From a virus, in the UHGV virus genome UHGV-0179803: 64,000 nt of DNA; one strand, 5' to 3'. Position 1 is the stretch's first letter; each line of letters begins with the position of its first letter. A model generated the notes under the pieces. It saw only the letters and a list, made by a program, of their open reading frames with translations, made no database searches and was not told the origin of the DNA. A program made the position numbers and the translations under genes. Shown here one piece after another: positions 18,513 to 60,412 of this stretch.

Positions 18513-19964
18513 CTATTTAACGTTTTCAATCAAATCTATAGTTCTGCCAAAAGATGGCGTATAGTCTTTGTTACCACCTTCTGTCCTAATCCAGAGCGTA
18601 TTATACTTATCCCAACCGTTGCTGTCAACCTCTTTTTCAAAACCTGATTCAAGAAACAGGTCAGTAAAGATAATAACATCCTGAACATCAGACAGATGTT
18701 TATCCAGATATTCAAACACACAACCTGCACGAGTACCGAACGTAGACTTGATCTGGTAGTCTGGCATCTGTGCAATATTCTGGTGAGTGTATACCTGAAC
18801 ATCACCAACTTCTGTTGACCAACAGAACATCGTAACTTTAAACTCTTTATACAGGCTGCACAACCCGCTGATTTCTGAAGTGATACGTTTCAGAGTCCGT
18901 GGAGAGATAGAGCCTGATACGTCGAATGCCACCACTATATCAATCGTTTTCTCCTGGTTGCGACCTGGGAGAATAACAGACTGGCGATTGTTGATAGCCC
19001 CTCTGCTACGCAATGTGTGAGTTAAAGCACCAGAGCGACGGGCCGGACGACGATAAGTCATATCAGCTTTCCGGTGTGACAACATACGTTGACGAATCAC
19101 ATCCAGATAGTTGATGATAGGCTTATTGCGATTCTTGATCCACTCACGCACCTGTGCCGGACCTTCACCACCTGCCGCTTTCATAGCAGCTTCCATCATG
19201 TCACCAGAGTCCTGCATTGCTGCATCTTTCTCTGCCTGAGTCATTGCTGGTTGGTTGCCTTTTTCGTAGCCCATAGCTTCACTGAGGTTGTCAGACTGGC
19301 CTTGTCCGTCCCCCATGTGAGTATCTGTGGCTCGTAGACCACCGCCACTAGCTTTACCTGGTTGTTGCTGTTGCTGTTGTTGTCTTTCCAGGTCTGCATA
19401 AACTTTTTCAGTTATCCACCCGTGGTATTTCTTATCACAATAACAATATTCAAGAAATGCAAACGGCTGGCCTTTTTTCAGCTGTGTGCGAATCCCGTGT
19501 GGGAACATTGCACATGGCGGTTCGGCTAAATCTACCATCAGACCAGTATTAATAACGTGGTCAGCGGCCTGATTAAACAGGTTGTGATCAGAGAAGGCTT
19601 TACCACGGCTGAGGTGATCAGCAATGATGTGACCTATCTCATGGCACAGGAGAAAAGCAACCTCTTTAAGCGTTTTAGGTGCATAGAAAGCGTCCAGCTG
19701 TTCTTTCATCTTATCATCGCACTTAGGCAGAATGATAGCACGGCGTTCCTGGCAAACACCTATGATGAACTCTGGATTGTAGTAAATCCGCTTATGGTCT
19801 GTGGCGATAGTGTCACACCATGTGTGGTTCTCAACAAATTGTAAGCCTGACAGGAGCACACCGTAGAAGCTCAATCTTTCCATGAGCCACATGCGAGCAC
19901 CCTGAAGCATACGTAGAGCTTCTGGTTTCTGTGCTAAAATCAGTTCTGAACTTCTTGCGTCCAC
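18513..19964 (-). CDS. VWA-domain protein with N-terminal HExxH metallopeptidase-like motif
   Basis: 483 aa; GTG start 6 nt after GGAGGA; HEIGHIIADH motif; VWA MIDAS-type motif VVAFDVSGSIS; poly-Gln linker. Confidence 0.65.
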   Translation of the reverse strand: MDARSSELILAQKPEALRMLQGARMWLMERLSFYGVLLSGLQFVENHTWCDTIATDHKRIYYNPEFIIGVCQERRAIILPKCDDKMKEQLDAFYAPKTLKEVAFLLCHEIGHIIADHLSRGKAFSDHNLFNQAADHVINTGLMVDLAEPPCAMFPHGIRTQLKKGQPFAFLEYCYCDKKYHGWITEKVYADLERQQQQQQQPGKASGGGLRATDTHMGDGQGQSDNLSEAMGYEKGNQPAMTQAEKDAAMQDSGDMMEAAMKAAGGEGPAQVREWIKNRNKPIINYLDVIRQRMLSHRKADMTYRRPARRSGALTHTLRSRGAINNRQSVILPGRNQEKTIDIVVAFDVSGSISPRTLKRITSEISGLCSLYKEFKVTMFCWSTEVGDVQVYTHQNIAQMPDYQIKSTFGTRAGCVFEYLDKHLSDVQDVIIFTDLFLESGFEKEVDSNGWDKYNTLWIRTEGGNKDYTPSFGRTIDLIENVK

Positions 19965-23283: not shown

Positions 23284-23535
23284 ATGTCAAACAAATACAG
23301 AGAATTAGACTTTGACAGGGACTACGAAAAGTATTATCATAGCGGCATGAGGGGTGGATCACGCAGGTGCACCCCTGCATACTTCTACGCTAATCGGGCA
23401 ATTGACCCACAAGAAGTTGTAGCTTGCAGAATGGCTTATAATTTCGACATAGCGTATGGCATCCCTGTCTTCGATGTAATGACAGAACTTGAAAACTTTG
23501 AACATACTTACGAAGTAAGAGAGGAGCTTTACTAA
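23284..23535 (+). CDS. hypothetical protein
   Basis: 83 aa; GGAGG upstream. Confidence 0.5.
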   Translation: MSNKYRELDFDRDYEKYYHSGMRGGSRRCTPAYFYANRAIDPQEVVACRMAYNFDIAYGIPVFDVMTELENFEHTYEVREELY

Positions 23536-24728
23536 TGTCAAGAAATATTTTCGAGAGTGGGCAGATTACGGTTCGTGAATTGCCCACTATGATCAAGTTT
23601 GCCAAGCGTCACGGCAAATCTTTATTTATACTGGGTTCTCCGGGCGTTGGTAAGAGCCAGGTCATCAAGCAAACTGCCGATAAACTGTTTGGAGAACGGG
23701 AAGATAACCTGATTGATATCCGTCTGTCGGATAAAGACCCAACAGACCTGTCTGGCCTGCCTGTTCCGGTGACAGAGGAAGATGGCACTACTCGCACTGT
23801 GTTTGCCACACCTAGCTTCTGGCCTACTGACCCAGACTGGGAAGGTATTATCCTGCTGGATGAAATGAACCATGCAGATAATTTTCTCCAGAAAGTAGCC
23901 ATGCAGATCATGTTGGACCACAAATGTGGTTGCTACAAATTCCCGAAAGGTGCGGTGTTTGTAGGTGCAGGTAACCGTTCTGGTGATGGTGCAGTGCTGT
24001 CTGTGTTGGAAGCACCTCTGGCAAACCGTTTAACGATTGTAGAAGTTATCCCAGATGCCAACGTCTTCCTGGAAGACTATGCATTCTCACGAGGTGTACA
24101 TTCTTCTGTGATCGGTTATCTGAAACGCCAGCCGTCATCGATTGAGAACTATGAAGCAATGGCAGACTGCAACTGTCCTGCATTCGCCACACCTCGTTCA
24201 TGGGTGACTGCTTCGGATATTATGTGGGACCTTGATCGCCATCTGGTTTCAGAAGCTGAAGCCCGTGTCTTGTTACAAGGGACGATTGGTCACACGATGA
24301 TGTTGGAGATTATGACTTACCACATGAAGAAACGCAATCTGCCGGAGATTGGGGATATCTTTGCTGGGGCTGTCAAAGAGTTCAAAGGTCAGAAATCTCC
24401 AGACCTCATCTGGATTCTGGGTTCAGAAGGTTGTATTGGTTTACGCAACATGATGGCTAACATTGAAGTTGATGATGACGAAGTGGTTAGCAGTGCTGCA
24501 AACTTCCTGGACTACTTATGGAGTAACTTCCAGAACGACAACAGAGACTTCGTATTCTCTGTGTTCAAAGCAATGATTAGCCCGAATGCACTTGGCAATG
24601 CTATTCTGGTGAACAAAGAGCATGGTCGTGAGAAAATCATGGCTAAACTGATTAAAGCGTACCCTAACCTGATGGCTATCGTCAAACAGTTTGGGGAAGA
24701 GTTCCGTGACTTGTTAGCTAAGGCTTAA
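23535..24728 (+). CDS. AAA+ ATPase, MoxR/CbbQ/CobS-like
   Basis: 397 aa; Walker A GSPGVGKSQ; Walker B IILLDEMNHAD; sensor region VFVGAGNRSGDG. Confidence 0.75.
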   Translation: MSRNIFESGQITVRELPTMIKFAKRHGKSLFILGSPGVGKSQVIKQTADKLFGEREDNLIDIRLSDKDPTDLSGLPVPVTEEDGTTRTVFATPSFWPTDPDWEGIILLDEMNHADNFLQKVAMQIMLDHKCGCYKFPKGAVFVGAGNRSGDGAVLSVLEAPLANRLTIVEVIPDANVFLEDYAFSRGVHSSVIGYLKRQPSSIENYEAMADCNCPAFATPRSWVTASDIMWDLDRHLVSEAEARVLLQGTIGHTMMLEIMTYHMKKRNLPEIGDIFAGAVKEFKGQKSPDLIWILGSEGCIGLRNMMANIEVDDDEVVSSAANFLDYLWSNFQNDNRDFVFSVFKAMISPNALGNAILVNKEHGREKIMAKLIKAYPNLMAIVKQFGEEFRDLLAKA

Positions 24729-31458: not shown

Positions 31459-32193
31459 ATGAAGCAAGGTGTAGTGTGGGCTTTATTCAATGGCTCCGAT
31501 ATTGCTGTCAAACCCTGGGCTGATGCAGGGTATTTGTGCTTCTGCTTCAATGCAGAAGGGGCAGATCACGGGAGCTATGCAGAGGTAGTAGAAGAACATC
31601 CCAACATTAAGTACATAGATTACTGGATTGACCCGTGGTTCCCACAAGAAACCTTGGGGATGTATCCTGCACCAGATTTCATCCTGTCGTTTCCACCATG
31701 TACCCACTTAGCGGTATCTGGAGCAGCACATTTCAAGAAAAAATTACAAAAAGATCCGTTGATTCAGGTCAATGCTGTAAAAGATGCACGTATTGCAGAA
31801 ACATTGGGTAACATGTATAATTGTCCGTGGCATGTGGAGAACCCTGTTGGGGTTATGTCTAATATGTGGCGTAAACCAGACTACAAGTTCCATCCGTCTG
31901 AGTATGGTGGCTATCTGCCGGAAGATGACCAGAACCCGTGGTTCCCTGACCTGATTAAGCCCAGAGATGCTTATCCGAAGCTAACCTGTGGATGGTTTGG
32001 GAATGGTTTTGTTGTCCCTGAGAAACGACCTGTGCCGCAGATTTGTGATGTAAATGGGTATTCTTTCCAACATACCAAACTGGGAGGAAAATCTCCTCGT
32101 ACCAAAATGATCAGAAGCCTGACACCTCGTGGTTGGGCATTAGCCGTGTTTGAAGCCAACGAACCCGTTGTAAGGAGCAAACTCAATGGTTGA
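31459..32193 (+). CDS. C5-cytosine methyltransferase-like protein (minimal, no obvious target-recognition domain)
   Basis: 244 aa from ATG after GGAGGG; motif I-like LFNGS, motif IV SFPPCTHLAVSGAA (Pro-Cys), motif VI HVENPVG (ENV), in the order and spacing expected for C5-MTases. Confidence 0.5.
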   Translation: MKQGVVWALFNGSDIAVKPWADAGYLCFCFNAEGADHGSYAEVVEEHPNIKYIDYWIDPWFPQETLGMYPAPDFILSFPPCTHLAVSGAAHFKKKLQKDPLIQVNAVKDARIAETLGNMYNCPWHVENPVGVMSNMWRKPDYKFHPSEYGGYLPEDDQNPWFPDLIKPRDAYPKLTCGWFGNGFVVPEKRPVPQICDVNGYSFQHTKLGGKSPRTKMIRSLTPRGWALAVFEANEPVVRSKLNG

Positions 32194-32857
32194 CTGGAGC
32201 AAATATTTCACCTACAGTGACGGTAAACTGTTCTGGGCGTATACCGCAAAAGCCGGAAGAGGCAGGGTTATACATCACGCAGGCGAGGAGGCCACAGGTA
32301 CAGACACAGATGGCTATAGGGTGATAAGTGTGTCAGGTGTTGGACGTGTTAGTAGGCATAGAATAATTTGGGAGATGCATTACGGGGAGATACCTGAAGG
32401 CCTTGTTGTGCGGCACAAGAACGACATAGCAGGCGATGATAGGATAGAGAACTTAGTCCTAGGAACACAGGGAGATAATGTACGAGACATGATCTACAGT
32501 GACAAATTGAACATTAACAATACCTCAGGGTGTCGAGGTGTATGCTACCATAGGGGTGTAAAAAGATGGATTGCATCTGCTGGAGACATATATTTAGGAT
32601 GTTTTAAGACAAAAGAGGATGCAATTACATGCAGAAAGTTATGGGAGGAGGGAAAATTCGTCCCGCAAGAATTAGATGTTAGAAATACCAGCGGTGTAAC
32701 AGGGGTGTTCTATGTGCCAAGCTCTGGAAGGTGGAGAGTTAGAGTACAAAGTGGCAAAAAGAGAAAGAGCTATGGTAGTTACAACACTTTAGAAGAAGCA
32801 AGAGCTGTAAGGGACAGAGTGATGAAAGAGATTGAGGAGTCTAAAGATGGGGAATAA
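32186..32857 (+). CDS. HNH homing endonuclease with AP2-type DNA-binding repeats
   Basis: 223 aa; HNH_3-like GYRVISVSG...RVSRHRIIWEMHYG...VVRHKNDIAGDDRIENL; two AP2-like repeats (TSGCRGVCYHRGVKRWIA, TSGVTGVFYVPSSGRWRV). Confidence 0.75.
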   Translation: MVDWSKYFTYSDGKLFWAYTAKAGRGRVIHHAGEEATGTDTDGYRVISVSGVGRVSRHRIIWEMHYGEIPEGLVVRHKNDIAGDDRIENLVLGTQGDNVRDMIYSDKLNINNTSGCRGVCYHRGVKRWIASAGDIYLGCFKTKEDAITCRKLWEEGKFVPQELDVRNTSGVTGVFYVPSSGRWRVRVQSGKKRKSYGSYNTLEEARAVRDRVMKEIEESKDGE

Positions 32858-35800
32858 GTTTATACCCTCTGCGTATAGTCGTTATGGGGAACCGAACCCA
32901 GTTGCAACAAGATACAAAAGCGGAGGCAGTATGGCACGAGACTATCGTGATGAAAAAGAGGTTGAAACTGTAGAGACTGTTTTAGAAAATACTAAAATTG
33001 TCCCTGTTCCACAACAAAATATCGGACTGACGGCTGCACAATATTTCGGTGTGCGATCAGCATTGTCCCAAGAAGATGGTGTGACAGTCGTTGCAACATA
33101 TTTCCCATATTACAACCGCTACGGCAATCTATCTGGCTTTAAAAAGCGTGATTGGTCTAAGCCAAAAGAGCAGAAAGGGCACTGGTCTGTAGTAGGCATT
33201 GTTAAGGCCAACAGCCAGTTCTTCGGTCAGAAAATGGTTGGTGAAGGCTCAGACCATCGTAAAATCATTGTCTGCGAAGGTGAAGGCGATGTTATTGCTG
33301 CGTGGCAGACTGAATGGATGATGGTCAGGAAAATAGCTACAGACCCGTCATCAAATAAGAAAGCTAAAGCGTGGGCACAAAGCGTTCTTGACGGTATTAA
33401 AGCCGTGCAGGATGGTGGTTCTGCTAAAGGTTTTCCCACAATTAACGTGGTAGGGCTTAATTGTGGTTGTGCGAATGCCGTAGACGCTTTTGCCAACAAC
33501 GAGAAGTTTATTCGTGGCTTTGATGAGATTGTCCTGGCCTTCGATAATGACGCTGCAAATGATGTTGAGAAGCTAAAACATGTCACCAAAGGTGTTGAAG
33601 CCACTCACAATGTTGCAGCTTTCCTGATGGCTGACAACGTTTTCCATGTGCAGTATCCGAGCGAGGTAAATGATCCAGAGGGTTACAAAGATATCCGTGA
33701 TTTGTTCCAGGCTAAAAAGTATGATCAAATTCACGATATGTTCAAAAACCCGATCAAATACGTGCCAGACGCTGTAGCAGGCCTGAATGATTTCTCAATT
33801 GAAGATTTACGTAAAAAATCCACCAATGGTGTTGACATTGGGGCAGAGTTCCCTAAACTCCAGAAAATGTTGAAAGGTTTGCATAAAGGCACACTGGTCA
33901 TGTTGACTGGCCCTTCCGGCGGTGGTAAGACTACGGTAGCTAAGAAGATTGAGCACCAGATAGCTAAATACCTGATGGATCCTACGGTGGCTAAAGCTGA
34001 TGACTACGACCCCGAAGACAGGTTGTGTATGATTCACCTGGAAGAGGACCCAGAAGAAGCCATCAACTCGCTGTATGCTAACCAGCTGGGGTATGATATC
34101 AAGAATTTCATGGAGGACCCAAGCAAGTATCTGACCGAGCAGGAACACTTTGAAATCCACAAAGCCTGGGTTGATGCTGATAAAATCAGAGTATTCCGGC
34201 ACTTCGGTTCAATACCTGTAAACGACCTGATCACCAAGCTGAAACAGATGGTGTGCTTGTATCATTGTCGTTACATCGTACTGGATCATCTGTCAATGGT
34301 TATTTCTGGTTTGAATGTAAAAGATGAGCGTAAAGAGCTGGACCTTGCAATGACGCAGCTTGCAGCATTCTGTAAGCAATTCAATGTGTTCATTTTGGTG
34401 ATTGCACACTTACGTCGTACAGAGATTATCCCACCGAAGGATAAAGAAGGTAGGGCTTTACCGTTCTGGTATCCTGTCCGTAAAGAAAACCTTCGTGGTT
34501 GTGTTTCTGCGGACACAGAGTTTTTAACCCCGCAGGGGTGGAAACGCATAGATAACTATGCAGAAGGGGATTTGGTTGCGCAGCACGATGAAAATGGCGT
34601 AATGACTTTCGTAACCCCGAAAGCCTACATCAATCTTCCTTGCGAAGAAATGTGGCATGTTTCCAACACTCACGTTGTAGACATGTTGTTGAGCGATGAA
34701 CATCGTGTTGTATATGTGAATGACAGAACGCCAGATGTTTTCCGTACGAAAACCATGTTGGAAGTTGTCTATGACCACAACAACAAGCCTTCAGGTATGC
34801 GTGGGAAAATACCTGCTACGTTCCTCACAGGGTGCAATGGGACGCTGGGGTTGACTGATGACCAATTACGCCTACAGGTTGCTGTAAATGCTGATGGGAC
34901 AGTTCTTACTGAGTCAACAGGAAGAGTGGCTGTGAGAATCAAAAAAGATCGGAAAAAACAACGTCTCGAGATGCTGCTGGAGAAAACAAACACCACTTAT
35001 AGGCGTCTTGATTTGCACGGGGTGCACGAAGGACGCACAGAGTACCAATTTAAAGCACCGTGTGGGTATAAAGGTGTGACTGGGGAATGGTTTAATCTCA
35101 AACAACACGAGTTGGAGATTATCTGTGATGAGGTTATGTATTGGGACGGAGATTCTGTGAACAAAAACAGGGTGTCCACCATTAACAAACTTGAAGCGGA
35201 CTTCTTACAGTTTGCCTACAGCGCCTGTGGACATAGAACATCTTTATCCATGAAGGAGAACAACAGTGGCTTTGGCGGTAGTTACAACTGTAAACCTTTG
35301 TACGAGGTAAATGTTTGCAATACTAAGTACATGCATATACGCAAAGGTAGTAATAACAAACCCTCTATTGAACGTGTACCTTCCCCAGATGGACGTAAGT
35401 ATTGCTTTACGTTACCGTCGGGTATGTGGGTGGCGCGCCGCAATGGGCATATTTTTATCACAGGAAATTCGGGGAGTATGGAACAACTCAGTTGGGTTGT
35501 CATAGGGGTAGAAGCAGAAGAGATGCCTGACAGGTCCCGTGGGCGTGTCCGTTTAGTTAGCCTAAAAAACAGGCCAGCTAAAACCTTGGGTATCGCTGAT
35601 GTGCTGATTATGAACCCTGAGACTGGTAAATTCTCCGATGCCAGTGACTGGGTGTGGGATAAAGAGACAGGTTTCTTCCTGAACAAAGATGGGGATATTG
35701 TCTGGAGGCCACAAGATATGTTCGACAATGAAGAACATGTTGTTGTGGAAACTCCTGAAGGTAAGGTTACCGCCGATGTGAAACCTCAACCAAAATCTGT

Positions 35801-35888
35801 TGACGCAGAAGGGGAAGAAGATGATGGAGTGGATGATCAGAGTGTAATCCAACAGGAGTTCCCTGAGGATGAAGATTGTCCGTTCTGA
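32847..35888 (+). CDS. primase-helicase (TOPRIM primase plus DnaB-like helicase), interrupted by an intein
   Basis: TOPRIM IIVCEGEGDVIAAW and LAFDNDAAND; Walker A LTGPSGGGKTTV; helicase motif split as ENLRG / SGSMEQLSWVVIG around a 323-aa insert. Confidence 0.8.
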   Translation: MGNKFIPSAYSRYGEPNPVATRYKSGGSMARDYRDEKEVETVETVLENTKIVPVPQQNIGLTAAQYFGVRSALSQEDGVTVVATYFPYYNRYGNLSGFKKRDWSKPKEQKGHWSVVGIVKANSQFFGQKMVGEGSDHRKIIVCEGEGDVIAAWQTEWMMVRKIATDPSSNKKAKAWAQSVLDGIKAVQDGGSAKGFPTINVVGLNCGCANAVDAFANNEKFIRGFDEIVLAFDNDAANDVEKLKHVTKGVEATHNVAAFLMADNVFHVQYPSEVNDPEGYKDIRDLFQAKKYDQIHDMFKNPIKYVPDAVAGLNDFSIEDLRKKSTNGVDIGAEFPKLQKMLKGLHKGTLVMLTGPSGGGKTTVAKKIEHQIAKYLMDPTVAKADDYDPEDRLCMIHLEEDPEEAINSLYANQLGYDIKNFMEDPSKYLTEQEHFEIHKAWVDADKIRVFRHFGSIPVNDLITKLKQMVCLYHCRYIVLDHLSMVISGLNVKDERKELDLAMTQLAAFCKQFNVFILVIAHLRRTEIIPPKDKEGRALPFWYPVRKENLRGCVSADTEFLTPQGWKRIDNYAEGDLVAQHDENGVMTFVTPKAYINLPCEEMWHVSNTHVVDMLLSDEHRVVYVNDRTPDVFRTKTMLEVVYDHNNKPSGMRGKIPATFLTGCNGTLGLTDDQLRLQVAVNADGTVLTESTGRVAVRIKKDRKKQRLEMLLEKTNTTYRRLDLHGVHEGRTEYQFKAPCGYKGVTGEWFNLKQHELEIICDEVMYWDGDSVNKNRVSTINKLEADFLQFAYSACGHRTSLSMKENNSGFGGSYNCKPLYEVNVCNTKYMHIRKGSNNKPSIERVPSPDGRKYCFTLPSGMWVARRNGHIFITGNSGSMEQLSWVVIGVEAEEMPDRSRGRVRLVSLKNRPAKTLGIADVLIMNPETGKFSDASDWVWDKETGFFLNKDGDIVWRPQDMFDNEEHVVVETPEGKVTADVKPQPKSVDAEGEEDDGVDDQSVIQQEFPEDEDCPF
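34500..35468 (+). mobile_element. intein (323 aa) within the helicase domain
   Basis: Starts CVSADTEFL (block A-like Cys1); ends NGHIFITGN followed by Ser +1; flanking extein residues reconstitute a DnaB-type RG-SG motif; size allows an endonuclease domain. Confidence 0.65.
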
Positions 35889-43008: not shown

Positions 43009-43035
43009 AAGGCCACCTTCGGGTGGCCTTTTTTA
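43009..43035 (+). terminator. intrinsic terminator
   Basis: AAGGCCACC-TTCG-GGTGGCCTT followed by TTTTTTATT. Confidence 0.7.
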
Positions 43036-43064
43036 TTGACAAGAGAAAAATTTTAGGCTATAAT
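43036..43064 (+). promoter_or_regulatory. consensus sigma70 promoter
   Basis: TTGACA-17 nt-TATAAT immediately after the terminator; ~300-nt leader before the next well-supported start at 43367. Confidence 0.65.
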
Positions 43065-43366
43065 GCGACCACTAAGAGAAAGATAAGGACTACCACTAGG
43101 ATTAAGCAAGACATTATCAAAGCACGCAAACAGTTGACAGCGGAAGAAGCTCTTGATCGGGGTTATCGTTTTGCACAGACTTATAAAGCTATTCGTGAAG
43201 CACTGACTGATATGGTCAATGGGCAGCGGGAAGTGATGAAAAACAATATCAGCATTAAAATTTCTGAGTACACAATTTGCAGGTTAGAAAGTTTAGGCAT
43301 CACTGTTCGTGATTTTGCTTTCAAAGTCTTGTTCCGTTTGGAACGTTTGTGAGAGGGAGGTATTCC

Positions 43367-44005
43367 ATGAAAAAGTTTATTGGCAAGGTAGTGGCTGTAG
43401 ATGTGGACCTTACTTTTGTTGATTCTGGTCGTGCATGGTTAGACTGGTGTCAGAAAAGGACTGGTCTACCTATTAACGTTTTTCTGCCGCCACAGAATCC
43501 ACAGATGCGTTTCTATTATGACCTGACAAAATACTTCCCTGAATGCTACAAGAAAGATTTGAGGCTTTTCTGGAAGTTGGGTGGCATCTATGACAACCTT
43601 GAGCCGTTGCCTGGTGCTGTTGACACTATCAAGTGGTTGCATGATGAAGGAGCCATCATCTGGTTTTTAACTGGGTCTTTAAGCCACAAACAACATGTTA
43701 ATAAATTCGATTTCATTAACAAGTGGTGTCCTTTCCTGGAGATAAAATGGGGAGGCCACGGAAACAGGAACGAAAACGAACTGATCCGTGTGAAAGATAT
43801 GTACGAGAAGGTAAATTTCGAGTGGGACGTGCTCATAGATGATCGCATAGAGGCATTTCCTCCTCGGAAAGATTCTCACGCCGGAAGCACGATTCTGATG
43901 GATACTCCTTACGATCAGAGTTGTACGGATTGGACACGTGTTGACGCTGTTGTTAACGGTTGGGGTGATAAAATGAAAGAGCACCTTGAATGGGCTTTAG
44001 CTTGA
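43367..44005 (+). CDS. HAD-family phosphatase, 5'(3')-deoxyribonucleotidase-like
   Basis: 212 aa from ATG after GGGAGG; motif I VVAVDVDLTF; motif IV VLIDDRIEAF. Confidence 0.55.
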   Translation: MKKFIGKVVAVDVDLTFVDSGRAWLDWCQKRTGLPINVFLPPQNPQMRFYYDLTKYFPECYKKDLRLFWKLGGIYDNLEPLPGAVDTIKWLHDEGAIIWFLTGSLSHKQHVNKFDFINKWCPFLEIKWGGHGNRNENELIRVKDMYEKVNFEWDVLIDDRIEAFPPRKDSHAGSTILMDTPYDQSCTDWTRVDAVVNGWGDKMKEHLEWALA

Positions 44006-44738: not shown

Positions 44739-44788
44739 TATTTTGCAACTTTACCTCTTGACAACACCAACAAAAAAGAGTACATTAA

Positions 44789-44815
44789 AGGCCAACAAAG
44801 ATTGTTGGCCTTTTT
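44789..44815 (+). terminator. hairpin plus T-run (terminator or attenuator)
   Basis: GGCCAACAA-AGAT-TTGTTGGCC followed by TTTTTATTTT; a TTGACA-17-TACATT promoter-like site lies immediately upstream (44758..44786). Confidence 0.5.
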
Positions 44816-44834: not shown

Positions 44835-45338
44835 ATGGCACTTAGTCTGAAACACGAATTTGGCGGTCTTGTTAACAGAGAACTTTTCGGTATTGACTGG
44901 TGTGTAGAGAAGTTTACTGGTTATCAAGACAAGGAAGAGGCTTACGTTACGCTGTCTGTACAAATTTACACTACAAGAATCACTATCCACCAGGGTGATG
45001 GAAATGTAACTCTTGACGAAATGTATGCCAAATACGATCTTATCCGTGATATGATCGAGCGCTGGATGTTTGCTCTGGATAACAACATCAAATGTAGTGA
45101 TCGTATCTGGTTAGACAACTCTCACGCCAAAGGGCACATGCACGGGAATTGCACTTTCGAGGTCTGTGTTGACGGCGACAGTAGTGATGACACTTTCACT
45201 TTAGCTGATTGTCAAAAACGGCTGTATTTTTCTCCTTACCAAATAGACCAAGTAAAATTACTGCATAAAGAACTTTGCAACCTTCTTAAAGCAATCAAGT
45301 ATTGCAAAACTCATGACGTTTATGGGGGTGCATTATGA
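44835..45338 (+). CDS. hypothetical protein
   Basis: 167 aa from ATG after GGAGAG. Confidence 0.5.
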   Translation: MALSLKHEFGGLVNRELFGIDWCVEKFTGYQDKEEAYVTLSVQIYTTRITIHQGDGNVTLDEMYAKYDLIRDMIERWMFALDNNIKCSDRIWLDNSHAKGHMHGNCTFEVCVDGDSSDDTFTLADCQKRLYFSPYQIDQVKLLHKELCNLLKAIKYCKTHDVYGGAL

Positions 45339-45790
45339 TTTTTGGTAGTGACGGTGGCAAATGGTACGGTGATGACTACTACGGAATCAGCTACCACATA
45401 GAACTGAACAAAAAGCTGCCTTGTGTGTTTGAACTGTGCATTAAAAAGGCAGAACGTGTTGTTCGCCTGCACAATGATCATTTTGCAGACTTCCTGATAA
45501 AAATCGAAAGACTGCAAGACTGTTTGTGTGATTTTTTACAAGCAGTAGATAACGGTGAGAAAAGTTACGGCAGGGTTGATCTCGACAGCAGTGATGAATT
45601 TTTCAAAATGCTGGCGCGTTGTTGCTGGCATGTCGGGATGGAAGGGGCTTGCTATCCAGAGTTTTGTATCTCTGATTGCTACCGCATCAATCATTTTACT
45701 TCTATCGAGTTTTTAAAAGACCTCGAAAACGAGTTAAAGGTTGTGTTAGACTACCTGCACAAACACGCAGCAGAGTACGGAGATCGTTAA
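45335..45790 (+). CDS. hypothetical Cys-rich protein
   Basis: 151 aa; ATGA overlap. Confidence 0.5.
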   Translation: MIFGSDGGKWYGDDYYGISYHIELNKKLPCVFELCIKKAERVVRLHNDHFADFLIKIERLQDCLCDFLQAVDNGEKSYGRVDLDSSDEFFKMLARCCWHVGMEGACYPEFCISDCYRINHFTSIEFLKDLENELKVVLDYLHKHAAEYGDR

Positions 45791-45811
45791 GCTAAGTAGA
45801 AGAGGGGCACT

Positions 45812-46273
45812 ATGATTATCGGTACTGTAAATGGGGATTTAATCTCTATCTTTAAAAGCGGGGCTGGTCACCTGATCCACGGTTGCAACTGCTTCCACAC
45901 AATGGGTGCAGGCATAGCAAGGCAGATTGCCAAAGAGTTTCCTCAAGCGTTGGAGACTGATAGGATGACTGCTTACGGTGATCCAGACAAGTTGGGCACG
46001 CTCTCTTGTTGGGAGCATTTTGCCAAGAACAGGATTGTATACGGGATTAACATGTATACTCAATTCCGACCAGGGCCTAATGCTGATTACTCTTCAATCA
46101 TGAATGGTTTTGAGCAAGTCAATGAGGTATTCGAAGGTATGTCGTTACCGTTCTACATCCCTAAGATTGGGTGCGGTATAGGAGGTCTTATGTGGGAGCA
46201 TGTAGAGAATATCATCAACCTCACGACTCCTGATATAAAAGTGATCGTAGTGGAATACTGCAAAAAAGGTTGA
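45812..46273 (+). CDS. macro-domain protein (ADP-ribose binding / ADP-ribosyl hydrolase-like)
   Basis: 153 aa; N-terminal GDLISIFKSGAGHLIHGCNCFHTMGAGIARQIA matches the macro-domain GDI..DAIVNAAN..GGGVDGAI pattern; later IPKIGCGIGGL matches the second glycine-rich loop. Confidence 0.6.
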   Translation: MIIGTVNGDLISIFKSGAGHLIHGCNCFHTMGAGIARQIAKEFPQALETDRMTAYGDPDKLGTLSCWEHFAKNRIVYGINMYTQFRPGPNADYSSIMNGFEQVNEVFEGMSLPFYIPKIGCGIGGLMWEHVENIINLTTPDIKVIVVEYCKKG

Positions 46274-46297
46274 CACCGGAAAATTATGGTGTATAAT
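46270..46297 (+). promoter_or_regulatory. consensus sigma70 promoter
   Basis: TTGACA-16 nt-TATAAT. Confidence 0.65.
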
Positions 46298-59887: not shown

Positions 59888-59929
59888 AAATTGAAAGCAG
59901 TACTAAACCACTTGAAAGAGGAAAAGATC

Positions 59930-60412
59930 ATGAAAGCGTTCAAATATGTTTTAGCGGCCCTGGCGATGGTTATCGGTGTAAATGTGAATGCTGGCGGTTT
60001 TAGAGTCGAGGCCCCCGAGCATATCAATCCGGTTTATGTGAAAGAAATTTTAATGAATTGCGCCGGGGAAATGGTTGCACCTGATGCGGTGTTTAATCCT
60101 GATGCACCGATCAACGTTAAAAAAGGTTGGCTGGCTAAAGCTGACAAAGAATGTAAAACATTGGTAAATAATGTTATCGTTCACGCCCTGATTGTTGACC
60201 TGATTATCAAGAAAGGCCCTGAAAATATGAAGGGCATGGACGAAGAGGAGTTTAAAGAGTATTTCTATAACGAAGAAATGAAAGTGGAGAATTACCATTT
60301 TGATGAAAACGGTTATGAAGATGTTAAAGCTAACTTGAAAGATGTTTACAATCTTGCGCTTGAAAATCCTAAAGCCGCCCATGCTATCAAGGTGCGAATG
60401 ATGGGAAAATAA
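59930..60412 (+). CDS. secreted/periplasmic protein
   Basis: 160 aa from ATG after AAGAGGAAAAG; signal-peptide-like MKAFKYVLAALAMVIGVNVNA. Confidence 0.55.
   Translation: MKAFKYVLAALAMVIGVNVNAGGFRVEAPEHINPVYVKEILMNCAGEMVAPDAVFNPDAPINVKKGWLAKADKECKTLVNNVIVHALIVDLIIKKGPENMKGMDEEEFKEYFYNEEMKVENYHFDENGYEDVKANLKDVYNLALENPKAAHAIKVRMMGK

Follow-up and report, generated by a model that had tools for sequence, protein, structure and literature searches.

A Tk.4-type macrodomain gene in an rV5-like phage relative, probably an orphan antitoxin against DarTG2

Macrodomain genes are very common in phages, and roles were assigned to them only in 2025-2026: anti-DarTG2 activity for T4 Tk.4 and PhiKZ gp104, and phosphatase activity on ADP-ribose-1''-phosphate (ADPR-1''-P) for Adpp. 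When T4 transposon mutants were screened on a host expressing DarTG2, only tk.4 emerged as a significant hit; a clean tk.4 knockout proved sensitive to DarTG2, from which the gene received its name adfM (anti-DarT factor Macrodomain), enzymatic removal of ADP-ribose from DNA being proposed from genetics only (bioRxiv 10.1101/2025.11.20.689424). PhiKZ gp104, also called AdfM, strips the ADP-ribose installed by DarT2 from single-stranded DNA in vitro; its active-site residues are N23 and K78 (Cell Rep 2026, PMC13309987). Orphan anti-DarT enzymes of phages are an established class that includes PhiKZ AdfM and AdfN, a NADAR protein found also in some Vequintavirinae. The Adpp of Vibrio phage Gary dephosphorylates ADPR-1''-P, the product of the RES-domain defence aRES, and NARP1 then rebuilds NAD+ (bioRxiv 10.64898/2026.01.28.702374). 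Here we analyse a stretch of 64,000 nucleotides from the viral genome UHGV-0179803 (hereafter the window, about half of the phage genome), which encodes a 153-residue macrodomain protein. We think it probable, from its sequence and by analogy with T4 Tk.4, that this protein works as an orphan DNA ADP-ribosyl glycohydrolase, expressed early, and neutralises thymidine ADP-ribosylation of the DarT2 type.

The macro gene and its principal elements are arranged as follows.
45812..46273, + strand: macro gene of the Tk.4/AdfM family (PHROG 335), 153 amino acids plus stop, ATG start, from the listing of open reading frames (ORFs)
45800..45807, + strand: Shine-Dalgarno-like AAGAGGGG, four bases 5' of the macro ATG, read directly in the sequence
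45878..45913, + strand: codons H23-G34 (HGCNCFHTMGAG), with His23, Asn26 and the first glycine (phosphate-binding) loop, from family conservation
46061..46063, + strand: codon for Gln84, at the position of the catalytic lysine in TARG1 (K84) and DarG (K80) and equivalent to SCO6735 Gln85, from HMMER alignments
46169..46186, + strand: codons G120-G125 (GCGIGG), the second glycine loop (substrate, diphosphate binding), from conservation and alignment

The ORF is present exactly as a preliminary description had reported it, and all the motifs from which that description had proposed a macro-domain signature can be found in the protein: G8-D9-L10, H23GCNCFHTMGAGIARQIA40 and I116PKIGCGIGGL126. Its N-terminus is colinear with T4 Tk.4, residue by residue, and for this reason the start codon is taken to be right. 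The macro-domain proposal was open to refutation by the lack of a hidden Markov model (HMM) match or of the fold, and both were found. Pfam Macro (PF01661) matches across the entire profile (positions 1-118 of 118) with 25.4 bits against a gathering cut-off of 22 (E 1.5e-5), PHROG 335 matches with E 1.7e-60, and most of the 247 database homologues at E <= 1e-5 carry a precomputed PF01661 match. An AlphaFold2 model built on a 112-sequence family alignment has a mean predicted local distance difference test (pLDDT) of 95.8 and a predicted TM-score (pTM) of 0.90, and has the three-layer alpha/beta/alpha arrangement of the macro fold. When this model was compared with the PDB by Foldseek there were 186 matches at E <= 0.001, led by TARG1 (E 1.7e-10, TM-score 0.77-0.84); Poa1p, the DarG macrodomains of T. 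aquaticus and M. tuberculosis, Bt_1257 and SCO6735 were among the further top matches, and the best 50 consist almost wholly of macrodomains and of serine hydrolases that had been engineered on a scaffold resembling a macrodomain. Judged by sequence and predicted structure the protein is a well-conserved macro domain, and it is only the conservation of motifs (both glycine loops and N26) that speaks to a predicted binding or hydrolysis of ADP-ribose.

Among relatives with a long contig, the nearest is L006, a metagenomic assembly of 48 kb. Relative to its copy the macro gene has a ratio of nonsynonymous to synonymous substitution (dN/dS) of 0.135, and the 27 amino acid differences all lie outside the blocks H23-A40, N80-Q84 and P117-G125. 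The low ratio and the lack of any substitution in the three motif regions identify the ORF as a functional gene under purifying selection. We also observed that the two macro genes (the L006 copy at 10001..10462) are less alike, at 82% amino acid identity and a synonymous divergence of 0.73, than the genes on either side, for which the values are 90-97% and 0.19-0.49. Higher divergence than the flanks combined with a low dN/dS suggests that the allele reflects mosaic exchange rather than positive selection.

Homologues were found by tblastn in 2,753 of 50,697 phage records, or about 5% of sequenced phages, with 67-79% identity in rV5-like phages and approximately 40-45% in T4-like phages, where the homologue is tk.4, adjoining vs. 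Characterised proteins were represented by T4 Tk.4, the eleven NARP1-associated Adpps in Table S1 of bioRxiv 10.64898/2026.01.28.702374 and PhiKZ gp104. Among these, the macro protein and T4 Tk.4 are reciprocal best matches, sharing 40% identity over residues 1-149 (133 bits, E 1.5e-44). The NARP1-linked Adpps reach at most 91 bits, with 25-37% identity and E down to 8.5e-28, and PhiKZ gp104 is 22% identical, scoring 35 bits against the family HMM. Like the T4 protein, the macro protein is a stand-alone single domain of about 150 residues with HGCNCF, YTQ and a short PGPN loop; YTQ occurs in 106 of the 112 family members and HGCNC in 100. Every listed Adpp has an insertion of 3-7 residues after YxQ that both the macro protein and Tk.4 lack, and most listed Adpps read HQxNC and YGQY at these motifs. 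In a neighbour-joining tree of 123 sequences, which is star-like and without support values and so gives weak support only, the macro protein falls in an rV5-like clade inside a larger group that contains Tk.4; the Adpps of Vibrio and Pseudomonas phages lie outside that group, and an Acinetobacter Adpp is nested within the broad family. This nesting, in a tree of that shape, means that the tree alone cannot fix the substrate. From the same nesting, NARP1 association probably arose more than once. One sequence family holds both anti-DarT2 and phosphatase activities, and annotation by homology only, such as the label 'phosphatase' in PHROGs and RefSeq, is unsafe.

The residues expected to line the active site are strongly conserved across the 112 family members. 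H23, G24, N26, C27 and G34 are invariant, as are G120 and G122; G125 and Gln84 are conserved in at least 90% of the family. By motif position N26 would be the counterpart of N22 in DarG and of N23 in PhiKZ AdfM. The HMMER alignments set Y82-T83-Q84 opposite I82-T83-K84 of TARG1, and G124 opposite TARG1 D125; since Gln84 and G124 occupy these positions, neither the Lys/Asp dyad of TARG1 nor the catalytic lysine of DarG and PhiKZ AdfM is present. A glycohydrolase of the TARG1/OARD1 type, which would carry the Lys84/Asp125 dyad, was rejected for the macro protein, where the pair reads Gln84/Gly124. When the family profile was compared with PDB sequences the best matches were Bt_1257 (E 3.2e-17) and SCO6735 (E 3.7e-15), ahead of TARG1, DarG and Poa1p, and the second glycine loop aligns with IGCGLAGG of Bt_1257 and SCO6735 and with IGCGLDRL of TARG1. 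The family motif NaYtQ aligns with NMIGQ of SCO6735, whose glutamine is Gln85 once a 20-residue tag offset is allowed for, and H23-G24 aligns with SCO6735 His24-Val25.

SCO6735 reverses thymidine ADP-ribosylation by DarT faster than DarG or TARG1, and does so without a catalytic lysine; substitution of its glutamine (Q85A or Q85E) renders it inactive, and in the proposed mechanism the Val25 backbone holds one water in position while Gln85 organises a water network (PMC9411070). It is a plausible precedent, by analogy, for lysine-free cleavage of ADP-ribosylated thymidine (dT-ADPr) in DNA, and so offers a mechanism for proteins of the Tk.4 type. The same study describes a mobile loop in the SCO6735 subclass that is five residues longer than that of DarG and TARG1 and bears Lys89 and Lys93, a proposed DNA clamp (PMC9411070). 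The alignment to SCO6735 leaves a gap of 5-6 residues after the glutamine in the phage family, and the loop is short in both the macro protein and the T4 clade. Membership of the SCO6735 subclass was rejected because this extended loop is missing, Gln84 itself being present; from the alignments the macro protein appears to be a Gln-type enzyme with a loop of DarG/TARG1 length.

Our proposal requires several steps. The gene would be transcribed early in infection from host sigma-70 promoters, and its product, a hydrolase of the T4 Tk.4/AdfM family made up of a lone macrodomain, would act as an orphan antitoxin against defence of the DarTG2 type. Where thymidines of single-stranded phage DNA had been ADP-ribosylated by the host DarT2, the enzyme would bind the modification between the glycine loops G32-G34 and G120-G125 and cleave the bond between ribose C1'' and thymine, restoring DNA that can be replicated. 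The chemistry would probably resemble that of SCO6735 and dispense with a catalytic lysine, Gln84 and a backbone carbonyl by His23/Gly24 positioning the water network. By analogy, the macro protein might be expected to share its substrate and phenotype with T4 Tk.4 and SCO6735. DarG HMMs match the macro protein with their macro half (PADLOC E 2.7e-13, NCBIfam E 1.3e-12), and the position of the gene, in an early, replication-adjacent region syntenic with rV5-like phages, was also counted in favour of an anti-DarT2 role.

Several observations weigh against this proposal. Identity to T4 Tk.4 is only 40%, and the enzymatic activity of Tk.4 is itself deduced from genetics; the sole phage AdfM with biochemical proof, PhiKZ gp104, is a distant Lys-type macrodomain. 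A proven ADPR-1''-P phosphatase belongs to the same family (bioRxiv 10.64898/2026.01.28.702374), and the DarG HMMs score that phosphatase, Gary Adpp, much as they score T4 AdfM. The macro protein is without the extended, lysine-bearing mobile loop that the authors of the SCO6735 study tied to efficient DNA binding, it is mildly acidic (isoelectric point, pI, 5.9), and the tree is star-like and lacks support values. Two possible discriminators were set aside as uninformative: the DarG HMMs, which match the macro protein, T4 AdfM and Gary Adpp about equally, and pI or net charge as a proxy for DNA binding, given that Adpps range from pI 4.6 to 9.1 and the macro and T4 proteins both stand at 5.9. 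ICP1 AdfB was dropped as a potential homologue, being a 77-residue DarT binder and not a macrodomain.

The presence of a phosphatase in the family raises the question of whether the macro protein is itself an ADPR-1''-P phosphatase like Gary Adpp or yeast Poa1p, as its main or a second activity; it would then act on the ADPR-1''-P produced when RES-domain (aRES) defence depletes NAD+, yielding ADP-ribose (ADPR) for NAD+ rebuilding or detoxifying the compound otherwise. Homology to the NARP1-associated Adpps does extend over the full length and includes the same motif skeleton, Poa1p is the top single-sequence match in the PDB (E 2.6e-6) as well as a strong fold match, PHROG 335 bears the label 'phosphatase', aRES occurs in E. 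coli, and the nested Acinetobacter Adpp shows that a phosphatase can sit inside the broader family. Moreover, the invariant His23 corresponds, in the alignment to Gary Adpp, to H24, and the H24A mutant was built as an inactivating allele of that enzyme (bioRxiv 10.64898/2026.01.28.702374); this residue does not discriminate, however, since T4 Tk.4 keeps the histidine too. Both reactions break a bond at ribose C1'', which would make dual activity chemically plausible, and the DarT2-eraser and phosphatase activities could coexist. Adpp, however, works only together with Adps and Namat, and loss of any gene of the operon abolished the effect (bioRxiv 10.64898/2026.01.28.702374). The gene is a Poa1p-like macrodomain with the conserved histidine (Gary H24), but Adps and Namat are not to be found within two genes of it, or at all in the window: tblastn with the NARP1 and NARP2 partners Adps, Namat, Nampt and Nmnat as queries gave nothing in these 64 kb (all E > 0.2), nor did the same four queries find anything in the first 100 kb of the rV5-like phage JLBYU08. 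The published list of macro genes linked to NARP1 includes zero phages of Escherichia, Salmonella or Klebsiella, and the macro protein stands nearer to T4 Tk.4 than to any Adpp, lacking the insertion after YxQ. Chiefly because NARP1 genes are missing from the window and from the 100 kb of JLBYU08, we consider the phosphatase explanation unlikely, though it is the main rival to our proposal.

An ADP-ribose conjugate other than dT-ADPr could also be the target, either bound or removed. It might be attached to protein or RNA, by CmdT-like toxins or phage ADP-ribosyltransferases, or be a Thoeris signal (His-ADPR or cyclic ADPR isomers). Some members of the ALC1-like/TARG1 class act on ADP-ribosylated glutamate in proteins and on O-acetyl-ADPr, SCO6735 works on protein as well as DNA substrates (PMC9411070), and host effectors of Thoeris II bind His-ADPR through a macrodomain. 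Yet the TARG1 dyad needed for the de-modification of proteins is replaced here by Gln84 and Gly124, and for T4 Tk.4, the nearest characterised homologue, no phenotype other than that against DarTG2 is known. A Pfam scan of 20 neighbouring or early-region ORFs (those below 90 amino acids lay outside it) found no ADP-ribosyltransferase (ART), NADAR or other ADP-ribose-related domain. In the searched literature Thoeris signals are not reported as a target of any phage macrodomain; known countermeasures are sponges, RyR-domain enzymes and others. We regard this possibility as rather improbable. The counter-defence role first suggested for the gene had two parts, and they fare differently: opposition to DarTG-like systems finds support in the homology to T4 Tk.4, while interference with Thoeris or other ADP-ribose-derived signals finds none in the sequence or in the searched literature.

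DNA-level similarity of the window is confined to short stretches of rV5-like Escherichia phages (Vequintavirinae), with identities of about 80-84%. Its gene order is like that of rV5-like genomes: tail fibres, an anti-sigma-like gene, a MoxR-type ATPase, rIIA, rIIB and a Dda-like helicase, followed by a cytosine methyltransferase, a primase/helicase, DNA polymerase, small ORFs, a 417-residue protein whose counterpart in JLBYU08 is annotated SSB, and then the macro gene. From these short DNA matches and the shared gene order, the window is taken to be a divergent member or relative of the rV5-like group. The local order of an NT5C-like gene, ORFs of 133, 167 and 151 amino acids, the macro gene and an ORF of 63 amino acids is identical in the metagenomic relative. 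The features around the macro gene are these.
43009-43030 and 44787-44813: strong terminator-like hairpins in the small-ORF region
43036-43064, + strand: sigma-70 consensus promoter, 12/12, from a scan
43349..44005, + strand: NT5C-type protein (5'(3')-deoxyribonucleotidase), 218 amino acids, with a DVDLT HAD-type motif (Pfam NT5C, E 2.9e-7)
44758..44786, + strand: candidate sigma-70 promoter, 10/12, from a consensus scan only, which could drive orf167/178, orf151 and the macro gene
44802 (or 44835)..45338 and 45335..45790, + strand: two weakly paralogous Cys/His-rich ORFs of 167-178 and 151 amino acids, directly 5' of the macro gene
46270..46297, + strand: perfect sigma-70 consensus promoter TTGACA-16-TATAAT, 12/12, from a scan, overlapping the macro stop codon and starting the next early unit

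Promoter-like sites number 19, against 10.8 ± 3.2 expected from shuffles, and terminator-like sites 10 against 3.5, which suggests many short early transcription units. Because the surroundings of the macro gene are so dense in sigma-70 consensus promoters, we infer that it is expressed early by the host RNA polymerase. The candidate promoter at 44758..44786 abuts the hairpin at 44787-44813, so that its assignment to the three-gene unit is uncertain. The two upstream ORFs have overlapping stop and start codons and are paralogous to each other at 28% identity over 82 residues (E 3e-5). They have no Pfam or PHROG matches and no counterpart in rV5_ev147 or JLBYU08, and are 90-93% conserved, in the same order, in L006. 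They are probably co-transcribed with the macro gene, and may be lineage-specific early or counter-defence genes.

Four genes 5' of the macro gene, and 97% conserved in L006, lies the NT5C-type gene, and this proximity of a nucleotidase is one reason to consider that the macro protein could be a non-catalytic ADP-ribose binder, or a housekeeping accessory of nucleotide metabolism, with no part in counter-defence. Some macrodomains do only bind ADP-ribose, and in a related Vequintavirus 146 genes were classed as non-essential on E. coli K-12, a study in which the macro gene itself is not discussed. Such a role is hard to reconcile with the retention of every family-invariant residue, including H23, N26 and Q84, which are needed for catalysis in homologues, with the strong purifying selection on the gene, or with the clear defence-specific phenotype of the T4 homologue, and we think it very improbable.

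Some other features of the window are recorded here for completeness.
18513..19964, - strand: ORF of 483 amino acids, labelled HNH endonuclease in PHROGs; Pfam finds a DUF2201 putative metallopeptidase plus a VWA-like domain
32186..32857, + strand: HNH homing-endonuclease ORF, with the cytosine methyltransferase and primase genes on either side, an arrangement shared with some BASEL Vequintaviruses
32832..35888, + strand: primase/helicase ORF of 1018 amino acids (692 in JLBYU08), with an insert at about 34500..35468 of 323 extra residues, C557-N879
59891..60412, + strand: ORF of 173 amino acids with a sub-threshold Pfam match to 3-hydroxyanthranilate dioxygenase (cupin fold), 21.4 bits against a cut-off of 25

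The primase/helicase insert interrupts the DnaB-like domain, starts with CVSADTEFLTPQGW and ends in ...ITGN followed by Ser. In sequence it looks like an intein, Pfam giving no match to an intein domain within it, and PHROG cross-matches to the PhoH and RNR families span the same residues. The DUF2201/VWA-like ORF pairs with the MoxR-type ATPase at 23535..24728, and the 173-residue ORF may be just a generic cupin.

The macro gene adds a divergent rV5-like lineage to the Tk.4-type branch. Our study leaves the field's picture unchanged, the DarT-type eraser role of phage macrodomains being already published and assigned to the nearest characterised homologue; what it adds is a well-supported annotation and a clean test case. 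As rV5-like phages are used in therapy cocktails, the macro gene would predict resistance to hosts that carry DarTG2. The comparison also makes explicit the question of how the dT-ADPr-DNA hydrolase and the ADPR-1''-P phosphatase activity are divided up, or combined, within a single family. One answer, which we put forward as a rather doubtful conjecture, is that T4 Tk.4, the macro protein and the rV5-like clade, as phage macrodomains of the Gln type with a short loop, form a mechanistically distinct, bifunctional class: one active site would remove the ADP-ribose that DarT2 puts on thymidine in DNA and would additionally dephosphorylate the ADPR-1''-P produced by RES-type NADases or hydrolyse another C1''-linked conjugate such as His-ADPR. 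If this were true, a single early protein of small size would weaken at least two unrelated defences based on ADP-ribose or NAD, and the two co-transcribed paralogous ORFs upstream could be its partners or further counter-defence genes.

Among the known systems, DarG2 macrodomains (T. aquaticus and M. tuberculosis) have the same ALC1-like fold as the macro protein (E 2e-9 to 1e-8, TM-score 0.74-0.78), and in DarG2 and PhiKZ AdfM alike a conserved Asn precedes the first glycine loop, as it does here. DarG and PhiKZ AdfM differ in having a catalytic lysine (K80 and K78) where the macro protein has Gln84. DarG also has a C-terminal DarT-binding domain and an adjacent darT, neither of which occurs at the macro locus, with its 153-residue protein and small-ORF neighbours devoid of DarT/ART domains. 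The macro protein was rejected as a DarG proper, with 47.6 bits against a cut-off of 250 for NCBIfam NF048014 (positions 4-139 of 338) and a PADLOC match restricted to positions 9-141 of 329. PhiKZ AdfM is, like the macro protein, an orphan phage macrodomain. The name AdfM was given independently to it (Lys-type, DarG2-like) and to T4 Tk.4 (Gln-type), two distant macrodomains whose similarity to each other is marginal, a local match of 23 residues with E 0.029; judging by their sequences, the name covers two distant lineages with different catalytic residues, lysine in PhiKZ and glutamine in T4 and the macro protein.

Gary Adpp (KNV71_gp137) and Poa1p have in common with the macro protein the skeleton GD, HxxNC, MGxGIA, NxYxQ and IGxGxxGG and the conserved histidine; the Adpps differ in their identity to it, which is lower than that of Tk.4, and in the Adps-Adpp-Namat operon in which Gary Adpp sits, absent here. 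Human TARG1/OARD1, the top structural match, also reverses dT-ADPr on DNA and is about 25% identical. The Gln-type ALC1-like proteins SCO6735 (Streptomyces coelicolor, PDB 5E3B) and Bt_1257 (2FG1) share the IGCGxxGGxW loop and the fold (TM-score about 0.75), but are only 21-24% identical and are bacterial chromosomal proteins rather than phage ones. T4 Tk.4 differs from the macro protein in 60% of its residues, in the second glycine loop (GIGKGNW, against GIGGLMW here) and in the position of its gene, between vs and tk.3, where the macro gene of this and rV5-like phages stands 3' of a DNA polymerase/SSB-like block. The two also have features in common: both come from large virulent E. coli myoviruses, both are stand-alone proteins of about 155 residues in PHROG 335 that are colinear along their full length, and both have HGCNCFHTMG, the short YTQFxPGPN loop and a glutamine at the position of the catalytic lysine.

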